Below are positions 2,191-27,549 of a DNA stretch of 28,634 nt, piece by piece. The position numbers were made by a program, and so were the translations under genes. Within the stretch, counting starts at the first letter, position 1; each line of letters opens with the position of its first letter. Source of the stretch: a virus (lineage: Duplodnaviria > Caudoviricetes); the IMG/VR virus record IMGVR_UViG_3300044641_000723, positions 1 to 28,634 of that record; one strand, 5' to 3'. Below the pieces are notes generated by a model. That model was not told where the DNA came from. It did not search any database and was given only the letters and a program-made list of their open reading frames with translations.

Positions 2191-4173
2191 TTATTTTTTT
2201 CTTGTAACTATGTTTGTTTTCCACTCGTGTCTGCAAGATTCGCTATGCTCACCGCTTGGCATTGTCCACCAACCACCTGCTCTATCCCAAACAGAGTATC
2301 CTAATCTTGCTGAAATTTGTTCTATGTCGCTTCTACTATATAGCTTTTTTGCTCTAATTAATTCTTTGCAAAATGGTCTGCTATTTGATATATCCGAATC
2401 ATTAAATCCTGATTTCCAACCATATGAATAACGAACCAAAATTTCAGTAGTCTGTGGTTTTACATTACCAACTGTCTTGCTTAATGGTTGCACCAACTCC
2501 CTAGAAATAATGATATTGCTATTTATTCCCTTCCCTATTTTTTCCTGACTTGTTTTTAATATCTTTCTATCTTCTAAGTCTTTTAAAATAGTATTAATTG
2601 TATCTACGCTTTCATCTAAAACCTCTGCTAATACTTCAGGTGTAATATCCTTTTGTTTAGCAATTTGGTCTAGAATATCAGATTCTAATTGATTAACATC
2701 TGCAAACATATGATAGTCTGATTCTTCGTTAAAACGCTTTTTAGATTTCCATACATTGTATGCATCTTGACTTTCTCCAAACTCGTAAAATACGCTAAAG
2801 TCTTGCGCTGCAAATTCAGCATCTAATTCTGCACCTAACCATAGATTCACTTCTTCATCACTTAAAGCATATCCTGTTTTAAGCATTGCAGTAGCTTGTT
2901 CTCTGTTGATTTTCCCTTTAGAAAATTCACGAATGATACGCTGCATATTTTGCCATTCACGACCTTTTAAGCCTTTGATATGCTCATTAACTGACAATTC
3001 CTGTACAGGTGCAGCAGCATCTGCAACAGGAGCATATTTAGTCATATCAATACCAATCTTTTCTAATATCCATTCTTTAGGCGCATTAGCTGCTATTGTA
3101 GCCTCACTAAATTCAATACCTATTGGTTCTGTAGGGATAATCTTAATTTCACTTGTTACCCCTTTTAATTTAGCTAACATATTAAAGATACTTTCTAAAT
3201 GCATTTGTTTAGCATTCACATAAGTGTTCTTAAATATTTCATAGCCATCACGCATTTCTGTTCTAGTGCCTAACTTACCTGCTTCAGCAATACCCATAAT
3301 AGAAGGGGTAGTTACCTGATGCCCACTAAATATGTTAGTCTGTATCAATTCATCTATCTTACCAAAATCTTCTTTTGTTAAATCACTTGTACCTAAATCA
3401 TCAATAACAGGCTTTCTAGATATATCATTTACAAAGGCAATCATATATTTTTTGCCATCTGCACCGCTATAAGTCTTTCTAATTCTATTATCTACATTGC
3501 GTTTTTCTTCATCATTAGGCTCACCATTTGGTAAGGTAATAAGTTTACTAGCAGAAAACCCTGTCTGTGCATTTCCTAAGATATGCTTAGATACCTCAAT
3601 GTCAGATTCAATATAGTTTAATGCAGCAAAGTATGAAGGCAATCCATAGATACCAATGTTAGGTCTGTATTCCTTAACATATAAAATCTGCTTACCTGTT
3701 GGTAGCTTAGGATTAAATGCAGCAATCACTTCAGGCTTTACCTTGTTATCCTTCCAATCTTCTTTATACCAATACTGCGTATTATCTTTATTTGTGCGTA
3801 TTTTAGTATAATCACAATGCCAAATTTCTGCAAGGTTACCTGATAAATCCCAAATAACCTCCATATAAGAACCACCGAATATTTCAATATCCAATGATAC
3901 CTTTCTAGTTAAATCATTTAAAGATTCAACTCTATTTGCTTTGTCTATGAATGCCTGTGCATCAGGCTGACCTGACCAACCATTGCCTGTAATATAATGC
4001 ACCTTACTTTTAATAATGGCACTATGCTTAGATGACTTATTATATAAATCTACTATGTATTCAGGATAGTCATTGTTTTCGCCATATTTAATGTACCCAC
4101 CATCAATACCTTTCTTCTCTTTGAATTCAGGTTGTTTGGCTTCTGCGAATGTTAATACTCTTAAATCTATCAT
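2191..4173 (-). CDS. Portal protein with C-terminal wHTH-like and MuF-like extensions
   Basis: N-term YGENNDYP..LYNKSSKHSAII, YGLPSY, IFSGHQVTTPSIMGI (portal core); C-term RPFCKEL...GGWW...SCRHEW. Confidence 0.8.
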   Translation of the reverse strand: MIDLRVLTFAEAKQPEFKEKKGIDGGYIKYGENNDYPEYIVDLYNKSSKHSAIIKSKVHYITGNGWSGQPDAQAFIDKANRVESLNDLTRKVSLDIEIFGGSYMEVIWDLSGNLAEIWHCDYTKIRTNKDNTQYWYKEDWKDNKVKPEVIAAFNPKLPTGKQILYVKEYRPNIGIYGLPSYFAALNYIESDIEVSKHILGNAQTGFSASKLITLPNGEPNDEEKRNVDNRIRKTYSGADGKKYMIAFVNDISRKPVIDDLGTSDLTKEDFGKIDELIQTNIFSGHQVTTPSIMGIAEAGKLGTRTEMRDGYEIFKNTYVNAKQMHLESIFNMLAKLKGVTSEIKIIPTEPIGIEFSEATIAANAPKEWILEKIGIDMTKYAPVADAAAPVQELSVNEHIKGLKGREWQNMQRIIREFSKGKINREQATAMLKTGYALSDEEVNLWLGAELDAEFAAQDFSVFYEFGESQDAYNVWKSKKRFNEESDYHMFADVNQLESDILDQIAKQKDITPEVLAEVLDESVDTINTILKDLEDRKILKTSQEKIGKGINSNIIISRELVQPLSKTVGNVKPQTTEILVRYSYGWKSGFNDSDISNSRPFCKELIRAKKLYSRSDIEQISARLGYSVWDRAGGWWTMPSGEHSESCRHEWKTNIVTRKK

Positions 4174-5284: not shown

Positions 5285-6235
5285 TTAGATAGTTACCTTT
5301 ACGATTTCATCAGGGAATGCAACGTTCACACCCATTTTGAATTCTGCAGCAAATCTTACTTCATCAGCTTCTTTAGCAAAGAAGATTTCAAATTTTTCTT
5401 CTTCGTTCAATAAGTCTGTACCTAAGAACAAATTGCTTAAACGCATTGCGTAAACATCGTTTGTACCATTAAGACCTTGTAAAGCTACTACTTTAATTGA
5501 AGTACCCGGAAGTACAAATTCAGAATCAGCCTTACCATCAAATGCATAGTTGAACATATTTGCGTTCTTCAATGCAATAGTGTAAGTTCTGAAAGTATCC
5601 ATACCACAAACAATAACCATATCATCAGCAGCTACTACTTTTGCAGGGATTGCTCTGTAAACACCATCAAATAAAGAAATTACGTTTGCAGCAGTAATAG
5701 ATGTCAAAGGCGCACCTGAAATAAATCCTGATACGTTTGCATCAACAACACCTGAAGCAGCACCAATCAATTTGATTAAACCATCAAACTTGTTTAAGTT
5801 ACCGTTTGCAGATGCAGTATCACCCTGCCAAATTGCACTCTCTAATTGAGAAGCAATAGTCTTTGCTTTCTTGTCAGAAAATTCTTGCTCAAAAGGAATT
5901 GAATCGTACTGAGAACCTGTAGGTAAAGCCTTTTGTAAATACTTAGATTCTAATGTCTTAGGACATAAAGCCTCTTGTACTTTGATTTTACCAACTGTTA
6001 CAGTTCTTTGTGTGAAAGAAGTTGTACCTGATGCGTTCCAACCGCAAGTACCACCTGCTTGGAAAAATGCATCTGTGTCCATAATGTTGATTGTCTCTGC
6101 AGACTTTACACCAACCATTACGTTACCTGCGCTTTTAATTAAAGCTGCAGTTTTTGCGCCTAATACTGAAGAAGTAACCAATAATGCTTCGTTCTCTTTA
6201 GTATAGTTTGCTAATGAACTTACTGAAAATGCCAT
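5285..6235 (-). CDS. Major capsid protein
   Basis: 316 aa after scaffold; IASQLESAIWQGD...FDGLIK motif typical of HK97-fold capsids; terminator follows. Confidence 0.85.
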   Translation of the reverse strand: MAFSVSSLANYTKENEALLVTSSVLGAKTAALIKSAGNVMVGVKSAETINIMDTDAFFQAGGTCGWNASGTTSFTQRTVTVGKIKVQEALCPKTLESKYLQKALPTGSQYDSIPFEQEFSDKKAKTIASQLESAIWQGDTASANGNLNKFDGLIKLIGAASGVVDANVSGFISGAPLTSITAANVISLFDGVYRAIPAKVVAADDMVIVCGMDTFRTYTIALKNANMFNYAFDGKADSEFVLPGTSIKVVALQGLNGTNDVYAMRLSNLFLGTDLLNEEEKFEIFFAKEADEVRFAAEFKMGVNVAFPDEIVKVTI

Positions 6236-6246
6236 TGTTTATAAAT

Positions 6247-6852
6247 TTATTTGTTTAAAATTGCGTTTCTATATTTCTCAATTCTTTCGTACTTGCTATC
6301 ATTAGTAGTTACATAAGATTGAAATGCGTTTGCTGCTTTTTGAGTAGGCTCTGCAGTTGGGGTGTTTGAAAGTGCTTCTACTAATTCAGCTACTTGTGCA
6401 AAACCTTGTTTTACTTTGCTCTCTAATTCAGCAATTTTTGCTTCTAATTGACTTTTTTGCTCTGCAAATTCAGCCTTTAATTCTTCAGCCATTGCAGTTG
6501 TGTCTTGTGCAGGTGGAACAGGTGCAGCAGGTGCAACAGGTTCTACTTCTACAACATCAGACTTAGGTGATTCAATTTCTACGATTGCGCCTAATTCATC
6601 AACTACAATAGATGTACCATCCATTAATTGATGCTCACCTGCAGGAGCAGGAGTACCATCAGCCATTTGTACCATACCACCGATTTCTAAAGCAGATATC
6701 ATAATTTTCGTTCCATCTACTAAAGAATATTCAGCCATTTCTACCTTTGTAACTTCAGGTGCAACAGGTGCAACAGGAGCAACAGGCTCAACAACTTGTG
6801 GCATATCTTCAAATAATGCTCTTATTTGTTGTAATGCTTCTTTTGGATTCAT
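6247..6852 (-). CDS. Capsid scaffolding protein
   Basis: Acidic, Pro/Ala-rich, C-terminal coiled coil; PAPAGEHQLMDGT motif; directly upstream of MCP. Confidence 0.7.
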   Translation of the reverse strand: MNPKEALQQIRALFEDMPQVVEPVAPVAPVAPEVTKVEMAEYSLVDGTKIMISALEIGGMVQMADGTPAPAGEHQLMDGTSIVVDELGAIVEIESPKSDVVEVEPVAPAAPVPPAQDTTAMAEELKAEFAEQKSQLEAKIAELESKVKQGFAQVAELVEALSNTPTAEPTQKAANAFQSYVTTNDSKYERIEKYRNAILNK

Positions 6853-6894
6853 AAATATTTTAATATAAATATTAAATATGTGGATATGTTATCA

Positions 6895-6999
6895 CTTAAC
6901 CGCTTATCCTTACTATTTACCGTTCATCACATTTATAAAAAAAAGTCCCCAAATGTTTGGAAAGTGTACAGAACCTGTGTATATTTGTTATGTCATTGA
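6895..6999 (+). promoter_or_regulatory. Early promoter cassette copy A (operator boxes + Bacteroidetes -33/-7 promoter)
   Basis: ATTTACCGTTCATCA 6915-6929 (degenerate copy at 6895), TTTG 6956-6959, 20-nt spacer, TATATTTG 6980-6987, TTATGTCATTGA 6988-6999. Confidence 0.8.
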
Positions 7000-7024
7000 G
7001 AGAGAGCCAACAAAAACTAGAAAT

Positions 7025-7126
7025 ATGAACCACAAAATTTTGCCACCACCATTAGAAATTAAATTGTTCCTTTATTTTATAGGAGCAGCTATTATTAGTG
7101 TTTTAATCCAATTATTAATCAAATAA
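7025..7126 (+). CDS. 33-aa single-TM micropeptide (MNHKILPPPLEIKLFLYFIGAAIISVLIQLLIK)
   Basis: First ATG after promoter A with A-rich leader; C-terminal part of ORF-track 6878..7126. Confidence 0.6.
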   Translation: MNHKILPPPLEIKLFLYFIGAAIISVLIQLLIK

Positions 7127-7135
7127 ATATAGACT

Positions 7136-7711
7136 ATGAAAAATCTAATTGAAAAGTATGAAAGTTTAGGATTCCATCTTTCTATGAAAGAAGAACCAAT
7201 GATTATTGGTTATTGCGTTAGAAAAGTTAGTAAAGCAAGATTTAAAAAGCCTTTATTCAACTACAGATTCAGAAGTGCAGAAAGAATGATTGAGTTCTGT
7301 AATGAATGGATTGAAAGAGTAGAAGCTAATATTAATTCTTTAAACCAAATAAAAGAACAAAAAAAGATTGCTCAACAAAATATGAACCACAATTATAAGG
7401 TTGGTCAGGTTCTTTATAACAGTTGGGGTTATGACCAAACTAACATTGATTTCTATCAGATTGTAGCAGTTAAAGAAAAATCAATAGTTTTGCAAGAAGT
7501 TTGTAAAAGTATTGTTGCAGGGTCTGAAGGTTTTATGTCTGCTCGTGTTAAGCCTGTTGAAAATGCCTTTATTGGTGAACCAATTTTAAAGAAGGTTGTT
7601 GTTTCAGTTAGTTACAATGGTAATGTTAGCTACTACATTAAAGCAAAACACGGTTGCTTCTGCGAATATGCTGCGAATGAAAATGGTGTTTATAGCAGTT
7701 GGTATGCTTAA
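7136..7711 (+). CDS. Hypothetical phage protein with SWGYDQTNIDFYQ motif
   Basis: 191-aa ORF with ACTATGAAA start context, in the + strand insert. Confidence 0.75.
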   Translation: MKNLIEKYESLGFHLSMKEEPMIIGYCVRKVSKARFKKPLFNYRFRSAERMIEFCNEWIERVEANINSLNQIKEQKKIAQQNMNHNYKVGQVLYNSWGYDQTNIDFYQIVAVKEKSIVLQEVCKSIVAGSEGFMSARVKPVENAFIGEPILKKVVVSVSYNGNVSYYIKAKHGCFCEYAANENGVYSSWYA

Positions 7712-7721
7712 TTAAATTAAA

Positions 7722-8246
7722 ATGAATAAAATAAAATATAACTCACTTGCTCTTGCTGCTGAATACCACAAGTATCAGCAGTATGGGGTTAAGCCTTACT
7801 TATACCATTTACTAAATGTATGGTATGAAGCAGAAAATTTCTGTAACGCAAACAATATTAAAGGTATTAAATTAGATGTAATCCTTTCTGTGTGTGCGTT
7901 GCACGATACTTTAGAAGATACTGCATTAGATGAAAATAAAATCAAGCTAATACACAAAGAAGTTTTTAATAGTGTTAAGCTACTGACTAAGAAGCCACCT
8001 TTAAACAGGTACTATATTGAAATTGCTAAAAATGAAATAGCATCTATAGTTAAACTGTGTGATAGAATATGCAATGTCAGAGAATGTATTAAGAACAGAG
8101 ACTACCGTAAATTAAAAAAGTATATAAATGAATCTAAACAATTCAAGATTATATACTCTAAGTTTAACAAGCCATTATCTAATAAATTAGAAAGACTTTA
8201 TTTAAAAGGAAAATTGATTAGTAGCTTTCGTATTCCTCTTTGCTAA
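7722..8246 (+). CDS. Small alarmone hydrolase (Mesh1/SAH-like HD domain)
   Basis: RSH hydrolase motifs in order: AAEYHKYQ, PYLYH, ALHDTLEDT, VKLLTK, VKLCDRICN. Confidence 0.85.
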   Translation: MNKIKYNSLALAAEYHKYQQYGVKPYLYHLLNVWYEAENFCNANNIKGIKLDVILSVCALHDTLEDTALDENKIKLIHKEVFNSVKLLTKKPPLNRYYIEIAKNEIASIVKLCDRICNVRECIKNRDYRKLKKYINESKQFKIIYSKFNKPLSNKLERLYLKGKLISSFRIPLC

Positions 8247-8436
8247 TAATCTTTCCTTCAATAAACGCTTCAGTTAACGGTTTCAAACCAATGTTAACTT
8301 CATAAGGTTTCCCACCTTTTCTTTTAGCCTCATAGCCACCTTCAGGAATACTTCTAAAGACAAATTCTTCAAAAGTGTTTTCAAAGAAAACTTCCTTTCC
8401 ACTAGCAATTTCACTAATTAAGTTCTCATTTCTCAT
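8218..8436 (-). CDS. Candidate immunity/antitoxin protein (72 aa)
   Basis: Small Glu-rich ORF directly after the synthetase domain, with own promoter; ends ISKEEYESY; function inferred from position. Confidence 0.6.
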   Translation of the reverse strand: MRNENLISEIASGKEVFFENTFEEFVFRSIPEGGYEAKRKGGKPYEVNIGLKPLTEAFIEGKIISKEEYESY

Positions 8437-8440
8437 ATAT

Positions 8441-8472
8441 CAAATGTACTAATTATTTCTGATTATCCCAAA
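8441..8472 (-). promoter_or_regulatory. Bacteroidetes-type promoter for the 72-aa gene (probably leaderless)
   Basis: Minus strand TTTG (8472-8469), 20-nt spacer, TACATTTG (8448-8441), ATG 4 nt downstream. Confidence 0.7.
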
Positions 8473-9737
8473 AAATTACTGTAGTATTTTTTAGATTTTT
8501 GTTCTATTTCCTTCATTTTAGCTCCATCTTTTTTAGGGTTTAATACACGATATTGTTCATAAAATTCGTGTCCTCTACCACCTACAAAACCTGTTTGCTT
8601 TTGAATTTGGTTATATTTAGTTTCCCCTAGTATTCTTTTGGCATCTGCAGGCTTTTCCTTAGCATATATCATTTTAGGGGTATTTACCTGTATTTCAGCA
8701 GTTAAGCCATTAGAAGTCTTTATATTGATAATATTGCCACTATATCCCAATGAATTAGAATCGTGTGATTGTACTTTAACTCTGCCATTACCATTTGCAA
8801 CTCTAGGGTCATTACTAAGGTCTTTTATAATATTTTGAATAGCTACAGGGTCATCAGTTATAATTGTATTTCTAACTGAATCTTTGATATTGCCTAAGTT
8901 ACCTTTTTCTTCATCATTTGTTTTTCTTACAATAGAATCGGCTGATTTCATATTAATAGGAGTAACAATAGCACCATACTTTTCAGCTAAGTCTTTACCT
9001 AATTTATCAACTTCAGGTGCTGCAGCTTCTGCCTGTGCAACTAAATCTTTAACCTCTTTATCATCTACTGATACTGTTTTAACTCTACCACCTGTACTTT
9101 CTTTATCACCACCGCCTTCAGGTCTACGACCACTGCCCGGCCCACCTAATTCAACTTCTTCTAGGATTTTATATATTTCATTCATCACCTGTTGTTCTTT
9201 AGAAACTAAAGGTGCATAGTTAAATATTCCCTCAATAGAAAACCCATTAACCATTCCCTGCTTAACCTTATCCCATACTTCATCATTTTCTACTAGCATA
9301 GATACGAACCAACTACCATCAGGCGCATCTTCAAATCCCTTCATTGGTTCAATACCTCTAGACTTATCACTAATGAAACTTTCAAACATTGTAACCCCTG
9401 TCTCAATTTGATTAGGGTCGTGCATTAAGTTAACATTGTTCTGATAGCCTTTTTTAAAGTATTTCTGTACAATCTTTGTAATAGTGTCTTTAGAAAAAGC
9501 AACATAGTAATCCCCAAAAGTAGCATCGCTTCTAAAGATAGGAGTATCAGCCAACATAGCGCAACCACTAATAATACGCTTATCTTCACTAATAATTTGA
9601 AACTTCTGTTCATTTTTAAATGCATTCCAATTCTTTTGAATTGCAGGTCTATCTACTAATGAAACGAACTGCACCTCTGCATCATCGTTTAAATCATCAG
9701 ATATTTCCAACATATATAAAGGTAATTCCATACTCAT
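8463..9737 (-). CDS. Prohead serine protease (XkdF/S78-like) fused to RelA/SpoT-like alarmone synthetase
   Basis: aa 1-~190: RIISGCAMLAD, NVNLMHD, GSWFVSM, GFSIEG; linker GGPGSG at aa 198; C-term KSADSIVRK, DSVRNT, GYSG, EIQVNT, HEFYEQYR. True start may be the ATG at 9731. Confidence 0.85.
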   Translation of the reverse strand: MSMELPLYMLEISDDLNDDAEVQFVSLVDRPAIQKNWNAFKNEQKFQIISEDKRIISGCAMLADTPIFRSDATFGDYYVAFSKDTITKIVQKYFKKGYQNNVNLMHDPNQIETGVTMFESFISDKSRGIEPMKGFEDAPDGSWFVSMLVENDEVWDKVKQGMVNGFSIEGIFNYAPLVSKEQQVMNEIYKILEEVELGGPGSGRRPEGGGDKESTGGRVKTVSVDDKEVKDLVAQAEAAAPEVDKLGKDLAEKYGAIVTPINMKSADSIVRKTNDEEKGNLGNIKDSVRNTIITDDPVAIQNIIKDLSNDPRVANGNGRVKVQSHDSNSLGYSGNIINIKTSNGLTAEIQVNTPKMIYAKEKPADAKRILGETKYNQIQKQTGFVGGRGHEFYEQYRVLNPKKDGAKMKEIEQKSKKYYSNFLG

Positions 9738-9757
9738 AAATAGAATTTTTTAAAATA

Positions 9758-11455
9758 TTAACTAAATCTTGCTCTTTGTCTTATTGCAGTTATTCTTTCT
9801 TGACTGCTAGTAACATCACTTTCAACTACATATGCTCTTACTGCCTGATTGCCAATATCGTTAATTGTCTGTTGATTTAATTGTGTTACCTGTGCAGTAG
9901 GTAATTGTGGTGGGATTGGTGCAGCACTTGACATACTAGGCATACTACCACCACCACCGCCACCTCTAGGAATAGATACAGATGCAATTTGTTTTACCCT
10001 AGCAATACCACCTAAAACTGCAGGAGCAGCCATTAAGTATGGATATGCAGGATTTACAACTGTTATTGGATTTTTAGAAGCCTGTTTAAATATTGTTGAT
10101 GCACTTAGATAAGTATCAATAGTAGCTGATGCAATAGCAATAGCTTTACCTGCTGCAGTTTCTTGACCTATTATATTAGATATACCTGCCGTAATATCAG
10201 CAATTTGATAAGCAGTTTCTATCTTACTTTGTTTTTCTAATTCATCAATTCTTTTTTTAGCAGCAGCAGTATCTTCTGCATCTTTAATAGATTGCAAATC
10301 TGCCTGTGCTTTTATTCCTAATACCTTTCCTAATCCATCTTTTTCACTTTTTTCATTAAACTCTTGCATAGTTTTTTCAGCATCTGCTTTAGCCTTTGCA
10401 TCATCTTCTTCTTTTTTCTTTCTTTCAGAATCAGTCATTCCATCAGAACCAATTGGTTCTCTATTTAGTTTTTTATACTGTTCCTTTCTTTTCTCATAAA
10501 GAATAAGGTCTTGATTTAATAACCATTCATTATATTTTTCTATTTCAGCCTTTTCTTGTTCAATTATTTGTTCTTTCCTTTTTTCTTCCTGAATATCTAA
10601 TATTCTTAACTTAGAATTTAAATCTGCTCTTTCTTCAATTTCTTTTTCTGAATTGCCTTTTATAGCTTGTAATTGATATTCAAGTCTTTGCCTTTTAAGT
10701 TTATATACTTCATCTTCCCTACCACCCTGTGCTTCAAGTTCTGCTATTTGGTTATCTAAAGCCTTAGTAATTTTACCAATAGCATTTGCCCATTCTTCTG
10801 ATTCTCTTTTTGCTTCTGATGTTATACCAACATAATCAGTTATACTTTGTACTATGCCACCTATTGTTTCTCCTAATTTAAATAATGCAGGAAAACTCTT
10901 TTTAATATATTCAGTAAATTCATTCCAATTTGCAATAAGTAATCCAATAGCTACTGCTAATGCACCTATTCCTGTTGATATAATTGCACCTCTTAGTGTA
11001 CTAAAAGCAGTTACAACCTGTGTTCTGATTACTGCGCCTAATTGCTTAAATGAATCTATGCTTTCCCCTACAGATTGCAACCCCTGTGAAAGTGCCATTG
11101 CTGATTGAACCTTTAATAATGTCTTTTGTACATTATCACTTTCTGCGCCAAATAAAGCCATCGCACCCTGTACTGCACTGAATCCACCTGCAACACCTGA
11201 TAGTGAAGCAGTCAATGCCTTGAATTTAGCATCAGGATTAAATGCATCAGTCAATGCTTTAGCATCACCTATCCTATCCCTAAGTTCTGCTGCTTTTGTT
11301 GCAGCTTTAATCGCTTCTGCAGATGTAGCACCAAACTTGTCTGACAATGCGACCACTTCATTCTGCGCTTCTCTAAGTTGCTTTTTAAGTGAACCTATTG
11401 AGCCTTCAGCACCTGATGTATTTACGTTTACATTTAAATTTAAATTCTCTGCCAT
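9758..11455 (-). CDS. Tape measure protein
   Basis: 565 aa helical, Ala/Gly-rich hydrophobic stretches plus coiled coil; C-term RAYVVESDVT. Confidence 0.7.
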   Translation of the reverse strand: MAENLNLNVNVNTSGAEGSIGSLKKQLREAQNEVVALSDKFGATSAEAIKAATKAAELRDRIGDAKALTDAFNPDAKFKALTASLSGVAGGFSAVQGAMALFGAESDNVQKTLLKVQSAMALSQGLQSVGESIDSFKQLGAVIRTQVVTAFSTLRGAIISTGIGALAVAIGLLIANWNEFTEYIKKSFPALFKLGETIGGIVQSITDYVGITSEAKRESEEWANAIGKITKALDNQIAELEAQGGREDEVYKLKRQRLEYQLQAIKGNSEKEIEERADLNSKLRILDIQEEKRKEQIIEQEKAEIEKYNEWLLNQDLILYEKRKEQYKKLNREPIGSDGMTDSERKKKEEDDAKAKADAEKTMQEFNEKSEKDGLGKVLGIKAQADLQSIKDAEDTAAAKKRIDELEKQSKIETAYQIADITAGISNIIGQETAAGKAIAIASATIDTYLSASTIFKQASKNPITVVNPAYPYLMAAPAVLGGIARVKQIASVSIPRGGGGGGSMPSMSSAAPIPPQLPTAQVTQLNQQTINDIGNQAVRAYVVESDVTSSQERITAIRQRARFS

Positions 11456-16974: not shown

Positions 16975-17268
16975 TTAATTTAAAATTTCATTAATTAATT
17001 CAGAATGGATTTCCTGATTCTTTTCAGCCAACTCCATCAGCTTAACTAAATTTTCAGGCTGATAAAGTTTCAAGATTAATTTAACTGCTTCTTCTTTGTT
17101 TCCACCATTTGCAACCATTAACATTGCATAGCTATTAGCCATTGCGCTTTCTAATGGACTATTACCTTCCCACTCTAATTGTCTAAGAAAAGATGCTCTT
17201 GCAACTTCATAACCTTTGTGGCTTTTTAAATACTCATAAAGTTCTTCAGGTGATTTTTGGTTTTTCAT
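16975..17268 (-). CDS. Hypothetical early protein
   Basis: First ORF after promoter cassette B. Confidence 0.7.
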   Translation of the reverse strand: MKNQKSPEELYEYLKSHKGYEVARASFLRQLEWEGNSPLESAMANSYAMLMVANGGNKEEAVKLILKLYQPENLVKLMELAEKNQEIHSELINEILN

Positions 17269-17282
17269 AACTTTGGTTTTTG

Positions 17283-17386
17283 TTGGTTATCAATCAATGA
17301 CATAACAAATATACAACCTCTGTACACATTATCCAAATATTTTCCACACTTTGTGATGAACGGTAAATAAATCTGATGAACGGTAA
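17283..17386 (-). promoter_or_regulatory. Early promoter cassette copy B
   Basis: TGATGAACGGTAA at 17354 and 17374; TTTG 17337-17334, 20 nt, TATATTTG 17313-17306. Confidence 0.8.
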
Positions 17387-18538
17387 TTACATCATAGAAT
17401 ACCTGCCATTACCCCTTTTCATATTGAAATTATTCCAAGCTAAAGCCAATGCCATAACGCAGTCATCGTGAAAGCCTGATGGTGCAGAGTACTTAACCCC
17501 ATTAGCCGTGAACTGATATTCAAAGACCTGCAGTTCATTTGTTATTGCGCCTTCAGGGAATCCTATCTTTTGTTGTTGTATGGCAGTTGCAAGACCTTCC
17601 ATAAGTTGCTGCTTACTTGAACTCGTGAACTTTAGACCTTCTATTGCAATACCTTCCCTTTGTAAATCCTCTAGGATAGGGTCGCCTACACCTGTACTAT
17701 CCACCAATATAGGGCATTTAGGCAGCCTCTTTATATTCTCCTTAGTGTTATGCCAATCCATTTGATACCTGTCAAAATAAGCCACATTCCCTGCATTATC
17801 AAGACCTATGATAACTGTATGGTCTACAGACTTAGCAAGGTCAATACCAAATGCAACTATTTGTTGGTTGCTAATTGGCTTAACGCAATCTTGAATAAAT
17901 TTATTACCAAATGGGTTTGCGCTATTCTCTGAAGGATTAGCCATATACTCCTGTTCAAACACTACGTTTGGCAGTTGCATCCTAGCTTCATCAATTTCTT
18001 TTGGGTCTATGAATGGGTTATCATAGCTAGTGAATTTAAAGGATGCCCAATCCTGTTCACCATCTTTCATAAACAGGCTATAGAAATAGTTTTTCCCTCT
18101 AGGGGTAGATAGGAATACTGCCTTCCCTTTATAGTCAGTTAGGGTTGGTCTAATACTATTTTGCCATCCTGCTTCTAGGTCAGGGATAAAGGATGCTTCA
18201 TCTACAATAACCAAATGGAATTTTCTACCTCTTAGATTATCTAATCTTTCACCTGTAAAGAATTCTACCTGTCCGCCATTAGGGAAGTCTATTTTTAAAT
18301 CAGACTTGTTTTTAGGCAATTCTAGGGATTCTGTCAGCTTACTGAAGAAAACCTTCGCTAATCCATAAGTAGGGGTAATATAAGCAACAGAAAGACCTTT
18401 AACTGCATATGTAACAGAAAGTACCTGTGATAGTTCTGACTTACCAAATCTACGACCACACATCACCACCCTGAAACGCTTATCACATTCTAGGATTCTT
18501 TGTTGGTTTGCGTGTGGATTAGGTAAGAATATCTGCAT
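17387..18538 (-). CDS. terL: Terminase large subunit
   Basis: Walker A CGRRFGKS, Walker B IVDEAS, STPRG coupling motif, GIDLAK and HDDCVMALALA nuclease motifs. Confidence 0.95.
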   Translation of the reverse strand: MQIFLPNPHANQQRILECDKRFRVVMCGRRFGKSELSQVLSVTYAVKGLSVAYITPTYGLAKVFFSKLTESLELPKNKSDLKIDFPNGGQVEFFTGERLDNLRGRKFHLVIVDEASFIPDLEAGWQNSIRPTLTDYKGKAVFLSTPRGKNYFYSLFMKDGEQDWASFKFTSYDNPFIDPKEIDEARMQLPNVVFEQEYMANPSENSANPFGNKFIQDCVKPISNQQIVAFGIDLAKSVDHTVIIGLDNAGNVAYFDRYQMDWHNTKENIKRLPKCPILVDSTGVGDPILEDLQREGIAIEGLKFTSSSKQQLMEGLATAIQQQKIGFPEGAITNELQVFEYQFTANGVKYSAPSGFHDDCVMALALAWNNFNMKRGNGRYSMM

Positions 18539-19630: not shown

Positions 19631-19796
19631 TCATTATTATAAAGTTTAAAGATACGAATACAAATCCTATGTTTAAACTCTTATGTAATTGTGCAAATTC
19701 ATCTACTGAATACCCTATTGAAATACCTAATTGTATTGTTTCTGTTAATACCCCTAATGATATTCTGAATCTGCCAAATTGAATATGGTATTCCAT
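19614..19796 (-). CDS. Hypothetical small hydrophobic protein
   Basis: 60-aa ORF tightly packed between neighbours. Confidence 0.5.
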   Translation of the reverse strand: MEYHIQFGRFRISLGVLTETIQLGISIGYSVDEFAQLHKSLNIGFVFVSLNFIIMNEETH

Positions 19797-20215
19797 TATT
19801 TATCTATTTGCTTTAGCTTATTTATTGCCCATTCAATGCCTGAAGTACCACCCCAAGCATCCCACATTAACCCACCACATCCTTCAGAGTATGGTACATC
19901 TTTACTTTGTTGATGCCTTTTGAATGATGCCATCCTAGCTATGGTATCCCTAGATATGTTTTCTTTATTCGCTAATTGGTTTGCCCTAGCTTTACCTACT
20001 GCAGTTCCACATTCACCCCATCCGTTTTCTTCTGCCCATTTTAATGCCCTCTTTGCATTGTTACTAGCTGATTCAGGATAGTCATTATAAGTTTCTTCAT
20101 ATTTACCACTAGCTATAATTGCTGCCCATACTTTAGCAGCTTTTTCTTCTGTGTCATATATGCAACTACCTGTACCTATTCTGTACTTACCATTGCTACA
20201 TTTGTATATCGGCAT
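19796..20215 (-). CDS. Putative head-associated protein
   Basis: YNDYP..ASNNAKRAL, GT.VG..RANQLA, TIARMASF.RH, LMWDAWGG motifs. Confidence 0.6.
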   Translation of the reverse strand: MPIYKCSNGKYRIGTGSCIYDTEEKAAKVWAAIIASGKYEETYNDYPESASNNAKRALKWAEENGWGECGTAVGKARANQLANKENISRDTIARMASFKRHQQSKDVPYSEGCGGLMWDAWGGTSGIEWAINKLKQIDK

Positions 20216-21206
20216 TACCTATCAATTTATTATAAATAGCAAATCTTTTATTATTTATGGTGTGCAGGTTAAAGTTAGTATTGCAGTAATCAAATAGCTT
20301 CTGCCCATATTCAATCCTAGCTGCTTCATCAAATGTCAGTAGCTTAATCCATTTGTACCAATCCTGTTGATTGTTTACATAGCATACAGGCATATCCTTA
20401 TAAGGGTGTACGTTGCTAACTATAGCAGGGTTTTTCTTTGCTGCAGTCTCTAATACCTTCAGGTTTGATTTCATAGCACCAAACTTATTTTCTACTAAAG
20501 GAATGATACTTATATCAGAATCAGCATAAGCACCCATATAATTACTAACATCTGCATAGTCATAAATAGTTGGGTTCAGCTTTAATCCGTTTGTAAATAC
20601 TCCAATCATTCTATCCCATAAATGTTTTTCCCCTAGATTATAACCTGCAATAACTGTTCTTACAGGGAAATTAATCTTCTTCATTGGATTCCTAAGAATG
20701 TCTAAGTCAGGAACGTGAGTACCTGAACCTGCCCAAAATAATCTAACCAAATCAGATTCTAATTTATTATCCTGAAATTGTTCTTCACCATATGGTAAAG
20801 CATTAGGAATTATTTCTACATTAGGATTTAACTTATATATTTCTTCAGCCAATCTTTCGTGCGTACAGGTGCATAGGTCTGCCACCTTCATATACTCTGT
20901 AATGATTTCAGCAATATTACTTTCTCTATATCTTTGTGCAAGAACGTGCGAAGGTGGTAAAATCCAATAGTCATCATTATCTACTATCAGTTTGAATTTA
21001 TATTTTATCTTCATCTTTACTAATAGTTTAGCATCTGTTGAAGCTAAAAACCTATTAAATAAAACAATGTCATAGTTATTATCAAATACTGCTTCATTAA
21101 TTGTATCGGTTATCATACAATAGTCTTTGCGCATATTAACCAAAGGCATCATAATCCTATGATATCCTACCCCACTAAATTTGTTTGTAATTGCTAGTAT
21201 TCTCAT
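20196..21206 (-). CDS. Glycosyltransferase, GT-B fold (GT4-like)
   Basis: SGVGYHRI..P, DNDDYW, IIPNAL, WAGSGTH, KSNLKVLE, SNVHPY. Confidence 0.8.
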   Translation of the reverse strand: MRILAITNKFSGVGYHRIMMPLVNMRKDYCMITDTINEAVFDNNYDIVLFNRFLASTDAKLLVKMKIKYKFKLIVDNDDYWILPPSHVLAQRYRESNIAEIITEYMKVADLCTCTHERLAEEIYKLNPNVEIIPNALPYGEEQFQDNKLESDLVRLFWAGSGTHVPDLDILRNPMKKINFPVRTVIAGYNLGEKHLWDRMIGVFTNGLKLNPTIYDYADVSNYMGAYADSDISIIPLVENKFGAMKSNLKVLETAAKKNPAIVSNVHPYKDMPVCYVNNQQDWYKWIKLLTFDEAARIEYGQKLFDYCNTNFNLHTINNKRFAIYNKLIGNADIQM

Positions 21207-21784
21207 AAAGGAATATAATATGCTTTAGTTCCATTTGAATAATCAGATACGTTTTTAGTGTGCAAGTCCCAAGTCTTTTTAACTAAATCCATTTTATTAT
21301 ATCCATAAACATCACTACCATTCTGTTCAATATGAGTAGCTTTAGTTAATGGTATGAACTTTGTATGCAATCCTGCTGCCCTGCATCTAGTACAGTAGTC
21401 TAAGTCTATTGCTCCGTATGGGTCTAGTTCTTCATTAAATGCACCTAGCCTGTTTATTGTTTCTTTTGATATTGTAAAGTTCCCAATTAAATCTAATGAA
21501 TCACCATCAAATCCTGCTAATGGTGTTGAGCATATTCCAATCGTAGTATCTTGCATAAATTCATTTCTACTCTGTAACCAATTATCAGGCTCTAGTATAT
21601 CATTTCCCATAATCGTAACATAGTCAAAATTATTTAATTGCATCAATCCTTTATTGATTGCATAAGCTATGCCTGTTTCATCTACAATGCTGATTAAGTC
21701 TATATGCTTACCTGCATTTTTAATGTTATGAAACAAAGTTTCAATGTTTCTATTTTGATAGTTTAAATATATTACTGCGTTCAT
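21203..21784 (-). CDS. Glycosyltransferase, GT-A fold (GT2-like)
   Basis: AINKG, GND (DxD-like), GAFNE..YGAIDLDYCTR. Confidence 0.75.
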   Translation of the reverse strand: MNAVIYLNYQNRNIETLFHNIKNAGKHIDLISIVDETGIAYAINKGLMQLNNFDYVTIMGNDILEPDNWLQSRNEFMQDTTIGICSTPLAGFDGDSLDLIGNFTISKETINRLGAFNEELDPYGAIDLDYCTRCRAAGLHTKFIPLTKATHIEQNGSDVYGYNKMDLVKKTWDLHTKNVSDYSNGTKAYYIPL

Positions 21785-22263
21785 CTAGGTTTATTTTCTC
21801 CTAATTTTCTTGCAGGTACTCCTGCATATTTTGTAAATGGTTCTGTCTTACCTTTTATAAATGCACTTGCTCCAATCATACAACCTTCTTCAATATGTGT
21901 GAACTGATGCAATACTGCGTTTAATCCTATGTTTGAATTTTCTTCTATAATAGAATGTCCACCAATCTTTGCACCGCAACTTATTGTAACATTATTAAAA
22001 ATTGTACAATCGTGTCCTATGTGTGCGTGTTTCATTATAAAACAATTATCCTGAATATAAGTAATATCTTCAGTACCTGCATCTATTGTAACAAATCCTG
22101 TAATAATATTATTATCCCCTATGATTACATTACCTTTTTGCTTACCCCAATACTTTTTATGTTCTGCAGGGTCGCCTATAATACAATAAGCACCTATGTA
22201 ATTGTTGTCCCCTAGTACAACATTGTCCCCTATTATTGCAGTTGGATGTATAAAATTAGCCAT
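21781..22263 (-). CDS. Left-handed beta-helix acyl/acetyltransferase (LpxA/NeuD-like)
   Basis: IHPTAII, hexapeptide repeats, HIGHDC, AGVPAR; ATG at 22263 preferred over GTG 22284. Confidence 0.85.
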   Translation of the reverse strand: MANFIHPTAIIGDNVVLGDNNYIGAYCIIGDPAEHKKYWGKQKGNVIIGDNNIITGFVTIDAGTEDITYIQDNCFIMKHAHIGHDCTIFNNVTISCGAKIGGHSIIEENSNIGLNAVLHQFTHIEEGCMIGASAFIKGKTEPFTKYAGVPARKLGENKPR

Positions 22264-22549
22264 TTGTCTTTGGTTTGCGACCACGCTTTTTTGGTTCTAT
22301 AATTTGTGTTTGCATCAATAAATCATCTTGATTTAATACTTTTTCATAATGCTTATATAGTCTTAACACCATATCCATTCTACAGTTACCACACCAAATA
22401 GTTAAAATGAAATTAGGGTCTATGTATGTTCTGTAGATATGCTCATACATTTTCATTATACTTAAATCTAAGTTTCTAATAAACCCACTTTGTGCAGTTT
22501 CATAGTTGTTATAATGCTCTTTTAAATATTGCCTATGTTCTAGTTCCAT
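22256..22549 (-). CDS. Hypothetical protein (WCGNC motif, basic tail)
   Basis: ORF, overlapping neighbours. Confidence 0.65.
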   Translation of the reverse strand: MELEHRQYLKEHYNNYETAQSGFIRNLDLSIMKMYEHIYRTYIDPNFILTIWCGNCRMDMVLRLYKHYEKVLNQDDLLMQTQIIEPKKRGRKPKTNG

Positions 22550-24418: not shown

Positions 24419-24974
24419 ATCTTAGTTTGTTTTTAGTCCAAGTATTAATTCTTCTTTTTACATCAAAGAACTTTTCTAATTCATATCGCAATTTACCATT
24501 TTTATTTGGTTCGCACCAATAGTCAACAAATTCTGTAAATGAATCACCTAAAATTTCTTGATACTCTTTTATATTATTTATAAATAAATCTTTAGTATTT
24601 ACATTTATATTTACATTTTCCATATGACCTGTCATATGTTTGGTCATATGACCTACTTCTTTTTCTTTGTTTTTAGTATGTTGATTTTTACCTAAAACGT
24701 TGTTGCGCCTAGATTCCGTGAAAGTTTTCCTACGTTCTTTTTCCATATCTAACCTTTCATTATACCATAGACCATCAGCATCTTTTACAAATTTGTCCTG
24801 TATCTTGACCCAAATTTGACCTACCGTTTGACCTATCATATGTGTGGTCATATGACCTCTATTAAATTGCAACATTAGCAGTTCCATATATGCACCTTTT
24901 TCTTCAAAGGTCATACCCATAGTTCCCCCTATGTAATCATTAGGGTAGAATAAAAATGCAGGGTCTTTTGACAT
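24339..24974 (-). CDS. Replication initiator (YdaU/DUF1376-like N-terminus)
   Basis: PAFLFYPNDY..MTFEEKGAYMELL..WYNERL; internal iteron-like repeats; C-term FVDYW..EKFFDVKRRINTW. Confidence 0.75.
   Translation of the reverse strand: MSKDPAFLFYPNDYIGGTMGMTFEEKGAYMELLMLQFNRGHMTTHMIGQTVGQIWVKIQDKFVKDADGLWYNERLDMEKERRKTFTESRRNNVLGKNQHTKNKEKEVGHMTKHMTGHMENVNINVNTKDLFINNIKEYQEILGDSFTEFVDYWCEPNKNGKLRYELEKFFDVKRRINTWTKNKLRYGNSKTLNPTATSRERMDALAKWVHS
24560..24857. repeat. Candidate replication origin: CATATG/GGTCATATGACC iterons plus AT-rich tract
   Basis: CATATG at 24621, 24633, 24645 and 24837, 24849 (12-bp period); perfect 12-bp palindromes at 24642 and 24846; AT-rich 24560-24620. Confidence 0.6.
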
Positions 24975-27174: not shown

Positions 27175-27384
27175 TTATGAAGTTTTTAATATTAATTGAT
27201 ATCTGTATTTACCTTCAGTAGAAGTAGTCAATTTAACGAATATATCACTTGATTCAAATAGTTCAATTTCGTGTGGTGTAGGAATCCAATGTTCTGCCTG
27301 ACCCAATGCACCTAATGGTACATAACCCACAAAGTACAATTCTTCATTTGTTTTCTTGTTAGTTCTTTTAATGTAACTTTTCAT
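27175..27384 (-). CDS. Hypothetical early protein
   Basis: Start reassigned to ATG 27384 (MKSYIK), first ORF after cassette C. Confidence 0.65.
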   Translation of the reverse strand: MKSYIKRTNKKTNEELYFVGYVPLGALGQAEHWIPTPHEIELFESSDIFVKLTTSTEGKYRYQLILKTS

Positions 27385-27397
27385 AGTTGTTTTGTTT

Positions 27398-27514
27398 TTG
27401 GTTATCAATCAATGACATAACGAAACTACAACTTATCTACATACTATCCAAGTATTATGTACTAAATTTCTAAAAAATGTGATGAACGGTAAATGGGACT
27501 GATGAACGGTAAAT
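27398..27514 (-). promoter_or_regulatory. Early promoter cassette copy C
   Basis: TGATGAACGGTAAAT at 27480 and 27500; CTTG-20 nt-TAGTTTCG; 24 bp identical to copy B. Confidence 0.75.
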
Positions 27515-27549
27515 TGTCCGATATTTTGTCCGGACAGAAAACCGGACAA
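27514..27549. repeat. 36-bp symmetric element with four TGTCCG half-sites
   Basis: TTGTCCG-atattt-TGTCCGGACA-gaaaac-CGGACAA. Confidence 0.7.

Follow-up and report, generated by a model that had tools for sequence, protein, structure and literature searches.

As described in passages of PMC10083569 and PMC12226406, the Apk2 toxins of MuF phages have a synthetase at the C-terminus of a head protein whose C-termini vary, and their gene is followed by a gene for a Tis1-like protein and a gene for a hydrolase. Iyer and colleagues, in passages of PMC5512222 and PMC9503650, described RelA/SpoT and zeta domains on MuF; PMC9503650 also mentions, in one line, Nudix domains fused to MuF, to the portal, and to a capsid-processing serine peptidase, and packaging and injection were proposed for such fusions. 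What head-borne phage toxins do biologically is described as unknown in parts of PMC10083569 and PMC11699363, and in the part of PMC5576092 on this subject, no MuF toxins are found in virulent phages and the current model relies on lysogeny. Here, we present an analysis of a 28,634-nt stretch of tailed-phage DNA (IMG/VR virus record IMGVR_UViG_3300044641_000723, positions 1 to 28,634; the window), in which a 424-amino-acid (aa) open reading frame (ORF; 8463-9737, minus strand) joins a prohead protease to a synthetase of the Tas1/Apk type, beside genes for an immunity-like protein and an alarmone hydrolase. We conclude that this locus is a new carrier for an already known kind of toxin system, and we favor, with a probability of roughly 0.6, that the synthetase is one of several swappable, protease-borne toxins that are packaged in the virion, injected, and then neutralized by early antidotes.

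As in the Apk2 MuF toxins, the synthetase lies at the C-terminus of a head protein, with a Tis1-like gene and a hydrolase gene next to it. However, the N-terminus of the carrier is a Peptidase_S78_2 domain and not MuF, in agreement with the earlier note on this sequence; the hydrolase is not Aph1, and its gene is read from the other strand, downstream of a repeated promoter-like element; a promoter box of the leaderless type belongs to the immunity gene itself; and no lysogeny genes were found in five complete relatives, whereas MuF toxins are reported only from temperate phages. Tas1/Apk1 with Tis1 (PDB 6OX6), a type VI secretion effector, is the closest solved structure for both the toxin and the immunity protein; here, there is no PAAR domain, and the phage head takes the place of the secretion system. 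toxSAS modules are stand-alone or antitoxin-fused synthetases of prophages and chromosomes, whereas the synthetase described here is fused to a head protein, and PaSAH and Mesh1 are stand-alone cellular hydrolases without a link to phage toxins. Swappable protease-borne toxins, cognate antidotes, and a linker or cleavage rule are not described in the main-text passages of Iyer and colleagues, and we found no description of a protease-borne toxin family in the literature searched, which did not extend to subscription journals and supplements. The earlier note knew of no protease-borne version of such a toxin; this stands for the toxin family, while the idea of the protease as an effector carrier has a precedent because of the Nudix-peptidase fusion, as far as the single line in PMC9503650 goes. 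The cultured Nonlabens phages P12024L and P12024S (genomes of ~35.7 kb) have a protease of the same family (349 aa, 38% identity) directly before the likely capsid gene; their C-terminal slot is likely taken by a scaffold, whereas the phages described here encode the scaffold separately and have either a predicted toxin or no domain at all in that slot.

The 424-aa ORF joins a prohead protease to a Tas1-like synthetase

The late genes on the minus strand of the window encode terminase, tape measure protein, the 424-aa ORF, a scaffold-like protein, capsid protein, and portal. The toxin locus itself comprises the following features:

9147-9737, minus strand: prohead protease domain (aa 1-197) of the S78_2/XkdF family, assigned by Pfam, fold, conserved residues, and position in the head module
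9081-9149, minus strand: junction at Leu197 followed by the GGPGSG linker, with a predicted self-cleavage site, based on linker motifs, junction residues, and low model confidence
8463-9080, minus strand: Tas1/Apk-like predicted (p)ppApp synthetase domain (aa 220-424), based on sequence and fold matches to Tas1 and invariant residues
8441-8472, minus strand: predicted Bacteroidota-type promoter of the immunity gene (TTTG, 20 nt, TACATTTG), which ends 4 nt before the ATG
8218-8436, minus strand: predicted Tis1/IapK-like immunity protein of 72 aa, based on its top profile match (6OX6_B) and association with Apk loci
7722-8246, plus strand: small alarmone hydrolase (HD) of 174 aa, PaSAH/Mesh1-like; its gene converges on the immunity gene, with an overlap of 29 nt

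The three ORFs named in the earlier note lie exactly where it had placed them, all motifs that it quoted are found in the 424-aa ORF, and the 72-aa and HD ORFs are genuine and conserved. The fusion is equally real: Peptidase_S78_2 covers aa 49-171 (E 6.3e-16, above the Pfam cut-off), and the match to Tas1 covers aa 198-424. An assembly chimera was ruled out; the same fused ORF is present in 18 complete loci among the 80 closest ones, and contigs from two independent studies (X3, 7947-9314, and X6, 6757-10200) cross the junction. For these and all later locus counts, a search with the protease gave at least 597 related stretches, and because only the best 80 were kept, the shares are skewed to close relatives and include near-copies. 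All five sequencing runs that hold at least half of the window are lake-water metagenomes. A search of NCBIfam gave no match above the cut-off.

A structure model was built from 32 fusions (mean predicted local distance difference test [pLDDT] score of 75; low for aa 18-43 and 170-218). In this model, aa 24-179 of the protease match T4 gp21 (Z 8.0, root mean square deviation [rmsd] 3.4, 116 residues aligned), while a profile search with the protease found no sequence match in PDB. His106 and Ser167 are invariant in the 32 aligned fusions and are likely the catalytic residues. The protease gene precedes the scaffold and capsid genes. The MuF profile PF04233 matched nothing in five genomes; this negative is weak because the profile also missed non-protease Apk carriers that are MuF-like by position.

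The C-terminal domain was predicted in the earlier note to be an alarmone synthetase, and the model agrees, matching Tas1 with Z 22.6 (rmsd 2.5, 193 residues aligned) compared with 13.2 for the next best. Foldseek likewise gave 3e-16 for Tas1 versus 3e-6 for the next match. By sequence, the Pfam RelA_SpoT match (aa 263-362) has an E value of 2e-4, below the cut-off, and Tas1 (6OX6_A) is the sole PDB match under E 1 (E 3.5e-30, 36% identity). By sequence and by fold, Tas1 is therefore closer than (p)ppGpp or tRNA synthetases. K264, K285, D286, R289, R319, E348, and Q350 are invariant in the 32 fusions. A passage of PMC12691689 gives R330, E382, Q384, K353, and N370 as active-site residues of Tas1 (it prints Q382 for E382); mapped onto the pairwise alignment with one offset of 21, R330, E382, and Q384 correspond to identical residues (R289, E348, and Q350), K353 to a conservative arginine (R319), and N370 to an isoleucine (I336). 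The domain is likely a synthetase of the Tas1/Apk type with (p)ppApp as its predicted product, and homology points to ATP/ADP as substrate and not GTP, which the earlier note had allowed.

In a tree, 25 protease-borne synthetases lie on one side of a branch (support 97/95) and 17 on other carriers lie on the other side, with some long branches; this fits a single old recruitment of the synthetase to the protease. Other arrangements of the Apk domain were also seen. At L125:3216-7216, it sits on a 791-aa carrier of a different kind; a 59-aa ORF comes next, and a hydrolase of the window's type lies beyond it. At L122:4869-6309 and L132:4971-6151, a small ORF and a hydrolase gene lie behind short Apk proteins that have no large carrier.

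Different predicted toxins share one protease and one linker

The suggestion that the C-termini are swappable is borne out by Apk, zeta, ART-like, and 110-aa tails on one protease family. Among the 80 loci, 48 have a bare protease of 179-198 aa and a gap of 37-50 bp to the scaffold gene; 19 carry the synthetase (one cut by a contig end); 12 carry a form of 480-486 aa, the tail of which is a zeta-toxin kinase (Pfam E 1.3e-29; PDB zeta E 6.7e-7); and one carries the 110-aa tail. An ART-like cargo (Atlas lead, 0.92) follows the same linker at the C-terminus of P0175 (aa 198-375), and a 40% identical cargo lies inside the protease chain of P0219 (aa 94-270), bounded by Phe. Judged from sequence, the family shows the general trait of polymorphic toxins, a conserved N-terminus with interchangeable C-terminal domains that are predicted toxins. 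The 110-aa tail is a fourth allele (L071:5001-5915; also P0097 and P0105-P0107), helical and behind the same linker; it has no Pfam match, and its locus has no reverse island and no partner gene.

On a tree of the capsid proteins (67 rows), the four states require 25 changes compared with a mean of 25.5 after shuffling, i.e., they are unclustered, and in two cases Apk and bare phages have identical capsid proteins. Among the first 48 of 63 usable loci, 19 pairs have capsid genes that are at least 97% identical; four of these differ as Apk versus zeta and only one as bare versus cassette. Mosaicism is general among the head genes (gene-to-gene rank correlation of ~0.6), and so mobility alone does not show drive.

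All 141 extended proteases have one of two linker motifs 21-31 aa past the catalytic motif. The pLDDT is <50 across aa 185-218, and the GGPGSG linker region is likely flexible in the model. The residue before the linker is F, L, M, or Y at all 64 distinct junctions compared with a background of 16%, while many bare alleles end without a residue of this type. These junctions make release by self-cleavage, proposed in the earlier note, plausible, and the tail junction is likely a self-cleavage site. We infer a polyprotein that is cleaved behind large hydrophobic residues.

Of 150 representative homologues, 16 lack the catalytic motif and were left unscored, and 58 have a tail of >60 aa past this motif; these tails are mostly scaffold-like by BLAST or by eye. 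Because PHROG 24921 matches both the scaffold-like ORF and the protease, the tails of relatives are scaffold-like, and the P12024L/S protease has the 349-aa form, we suggest that the toxin sits in the scaffold slot of its relatives. In P0268, a cargo is located between protease and scaffold within one protein. Of 72 scorable homologues, 21 have an insert of >40 aa in the segment that corresponds to F40-F46. As separate observations on such modules, a stand-alone 139-aa ORF of the window (19796-20215, minus strand; PHROG 2859) is likely an internal head protein and recurs, bounded by Phe, inside the proteases P0126, P0128, and P0265, and the proteases P0177, P0181, P0182, and P0221 have series of inserts in the N-terminal slot, one of which has a DxD motif that, by eye, we take to be phosphatase-like.

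The Apk and zeta types are each paired with their own partner gene

A cognate partner gene lies beside the toxin in all 18 complete Apk loci and all 12 zeta loci, and we predict an immunity role for it. In the Apk loci, the immunity gene directly follows the synthetase (18/18 complete Apk and 0/48 bare loci). The top PDB match of its profile is Tis1 (6OX6_B), at a weak E value of 0.005, which together with its position is in line with the immunity-like function that the earlier note had assigned.

The hydrolase gene is likewise found in 18/18 complete Apk loci and no bare locus; among complete genomes, three of three with Apk have it compared with none of one with zeta and none of five bare. 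H61 and D62 are invariant in 11 sequences, and the PDB matches are to the small alarmone hydrolase family. Its HD profile matches PaSAH (E 1e-14) better than Aph1 (E 6.5e-5), and when the Aph1 signature given in part of PMC10083569 (D24, R96, D116, R119, K133, and Y134) was placed on the shared motifs by hand alignment, the corresponding residues were Y21, E100, R120, I123, K133, and Y134, i.e., two of six are kept. On these two grounds, we reject the identification as Aph1. As a control, the hydrolase beside a non-protease Apk (L123) matches Aph1 at E 5e-58. The three-part Apk2/IapK/Aph1 logic therefore holds for the synthetase, the Tis1-like neighbor, and the presence of a hydrolase but not for the kind of hydrolase, which also lies in a separate reverse operon; it may have been recruited independently of Aph1.

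In 12/12 zeta loci, a convergent gene of 56-57 aa takes the place of the hydrolase. The 57-aa protein has no real Pfam match and no match to epsilon antitoxin; PPR matches had no passing stretch and were rejected as artefacts. A model of the zeta kinase in complex with this partner scored 0.93 compared with 0.00 for the best control, with 94% agreement of contacts between runs and a partner pLDDT of ≥88; the modeled contacts include P-loop residues 73-74. The mark used is reached by 116 of 157 solved pairs and 2 of 215 mismatched pairs, rates that apply only roughly to these alignments. The model supports that the 57-aa protein binds the zeta kinase and makes it a candidate new zeta-toxin inhibitor.

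The predicted antidote genes have promoter-like signals of their own

The Bacteroidota promoter box is given as TAnnTTTG or TAnnTTGY at −12 to −5 in part of PMC9723704. In 25/25 immunity genes, a box of this kind is separated from the ATG by 3-5 nt (by exactly 4 nt in 22; 13 distinct upstream sequences; 3 of the 25 genes assigned by position and by eye); among the remaining minus-strand ORFs of four genomes, 0/198 have one, and 1% of ATG triplets overall are preceded by one. This comparison is not blind because the box was noticed before the test was fixed. The immunity gene is predicted, from this spacing, to have a leaderless mRNA, and we take the upstream TTTG to be the second promoter element. 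A generic sigma-70 scan and a genome-wide count of TAnnTTTG were at chance level, and only the position of the box is informative. Our reading is that the antidotes could be made by the host polymerase as soon as the DNA enters.

The unit is bigger than first described: it extends to ~6873 and takes in two further ORFs, of 33 and 191 aa, and a promoter-like element. The additional features, with two further copies of the element and the adjoining head genes, are as follows:

6873-7037, plus strand: repeated promoter-like element of ~160 bp, copy 1, at the head of the reverse island (TTTG at 6956-6959; TATATTTG at 6980-6987)
7025-7126, plus strand: hydrophobic ORF of 33 aa, replacing the listed 82-aa ORF
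7136-7711, plus strand: two-domain protein of 191 aa (PHROG 37844), a member of the island that is not toxin-specific
17255-17417, minus strand: promoter-like element, copy 2, before small genes after the terminase gene
27379-27532, minus strand: promoter-like element, copy 3, before small genes
6247-6852, minus strand: scaffold-like protein, of a kind joined to the protease C-terminus in many distant relatives
5285-6235, minus strand: major capsid protein (context), based on weak family matches and gene order

All three copies of the element in the window have small genes behind them, and we suggest that the element is likely an early promoter. A profile of the element, built partly from three island copies, matched between protease and scaffold in 18/18 Apk and 12/12 zeta loci and in 0/48 bare loci. 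A 97-aa gene behind copy 2 (16975-17268) has a 73% identical homologue (L136:10480-10770) inside the reverse island of G003, indicating that small genes move between promoter copies.

The 191-aa gene has the same distribution (18/18 Apk, 12/12 zeta, and 0/48 bare loci). Because it occurs with both toxin types, and also follows a terminase gene in phages without a toxin nearby, it was rejected as a toxin-specific antidote. Its model (pLDDT 88) gave no Foldseek match at E 0.001 and only unnamed clusters in the Atlas; the best VIA match of aa 1-66 is T7 Gp1.2, a dGTPase-binding protein (Z 7.2, within common scores and a lead only), and the C-terminal half has Tudor-like matches (Z ≤5.4, within common scores). 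The listed 82-aa ORF from 6878 overruns the promoter element and is probably mis-started; the 33-aa ORF is preferred.

Discussion

The fusion of protease and toxin, the exchange of tails, the pairing of toxins with partners, and the promoter-like boxes were observed directly in these genomes. From them, we infer enzyme activity, cleavage, packaging, ejection, and the timing of these events as follows. The fusion would be produced late in infection and built into the prohead, while the Tis1-like protein would restrain the synthetase in the cell that makes it. Cleavage after Leu197 would release the toxin domain for ejection into the next host, and there it would use up ATP/ADP to make (p)ppApp until the antidotes are expressed. 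The leaderless immunity gene and the hydrolase gene of the reverse operon would be expressed at once from the incoming DNA, neutralizing the enzyme, and the hydrolase would convert the existing product back to ATP/ADP. A cell that receives the protein without expressing the cognate genome would be poisoned. That apparently lytic phages have this toxin logic on their maturation protease points to a role during infection itself, and the natural bare, Apk, and zeta alleles in near-identical backgrounds, together with the predicted cleavage rule and the antidote promoter boxes, make delivery, timing, and purpose testable.

Several points weigh against this proposal. The fold match of the protease to T4 gp21 is at the edge of common scores, with identity of ≤14%. 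The position of Tas1 N370 is Ile336, and an invariant asparagine (N338) lies two residues further on. The hydrophobic residue at the junction may simply mark where an amphipathic helix stops, and the sequences of the 64 junctions are related to each other. The hydrolase lacks the specificity residues of Aph1. The label early for the repeated element derives from position alone, and the zeta partners match the published promoter motifs in only 2 of 13 cases, while all 13 match only a variant fitted after the fact. The cassette is dispensable, with 48 of 80 loci bare. Finally, degradation and loss from the head is a common fate of prohead proteases and scaffolds, and for this reason the freed domain may not stay inside the head or pass a long tail.

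The cassette could also be a selfish poison-antidote element, an explanation that shares the delivery steps with the proposal above and differs in what selects for them. The toxin would be packaged whatever genome fills the head; non-cognate or bare genomes would have their next hosts poisoned, such heads from mixed infections would leave no progeny, and the cassette would spread and toxin types diversify. The host-type promoter boxes of the antidote genes, the absence of the hydrolase and 191-aa genes from all of five bare genomes (controls run), and the unclustered distribution of cassette states on the capsid tree with the two cases of identical capsid proteins would all be expected, and X4 has a joint from 6828 to 9210 that skips the cassette in a run that also holds it. 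However, only 1 of the 19 near-identical capsid pairs differs as bare versus cassette, bare alleles are still common, and frequent co-infection would be required; we regard this explanation as rather unlikely. A related and far-reaching claim, to which we give slightly more credence while still doubting it, is that the protease of a lytic phage serves as a self-processing carrier that puts a toxin into every head, with rescue only of infections in which the cognate antidote is expressed. If true, viruses would have a heritable poison-antidote drive in which the Apk, zeta, and ART-like tails compete with one another; hosts that destroy incoming DNA would be killed and antidote-free siblings from mixed infections wiped out. 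Alternatively, the enzyme might act in the producing cell, where, freed at head maturation, it would tune nucleotide pools or shut down a co-infecting element late, and the early antidotes would be protection in advance. The position of the gene in the late head module and the early antidotes fit this idea as well, and cleavage products may leave the head; but it leaves unexplained why unrelated toxins share carrier and linker and why the cargo lies in the scaffold slot, draining ATP late would be costly to the phage, and an immunity protein free to diffuse would shield a co-infecting phage too. We consider it unlikely.

A prophage function, either as a toxin-antitoxin or anti-phage defense module of the toxSAS type or as a weapon of the lysogen, with host-type promoters keeping the antidotes on, would suit the constitutive-looking promoter boxes and the tie of MuF toxins to temperate phages stated in part of PMC5576092. 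The genome also has initiator-type replication genes and an Erf recombinase. Such genes are common in temperate phages. On the other hand, profiles for tyrosine integrase, resolvase, HTH_3, and ParA matched none of the five complete relatives (34.9-36.3 kb), in which divergent lysogeny genes are possible, compared with 12-14 of 14 control genomes. A pattern-limited scan of GTDB found no prophage copy; its two contigs, which come from one Chitinophagaceae metagenome bin, are both bare and phage-like, and the fetched flanks hold phage genes only. PADLOC gave no match for the four proteins scanned. We regard a prophage function as very unlikely. The lack of lysogeny profile matches, the contigs from the Chitinophagaceae bin scan, the promoter type, and the Nonlabens relatives point to hosts among the Bacteroidota and to a life that is probably lytic. 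Because the phages look non-temperate, the lysogen-competition model for MuF toxins does not carry over to the virion-packaged, protease-borne toxin that we favor.

Other features of the window

The tape measure protein (9758-11455) is highly variable among close relatives (~560-771 aa, down to ~35% identity), in which the protease is nevertheless >85% identical. The C-terminus of the portal (2191-4173, 660 aa; 591-704 aa in relatives) is extended, with a weak match to a winged helix at aa 492-545 and several Phe-small-residue joints. A hexapeptide acetyltransferase gene and two glycosyltransferase-like genes lie in a row at 20196-22284. A pair of 35-nt direct repeats within the replication initiator gene (24620-24858) is a possible origin.

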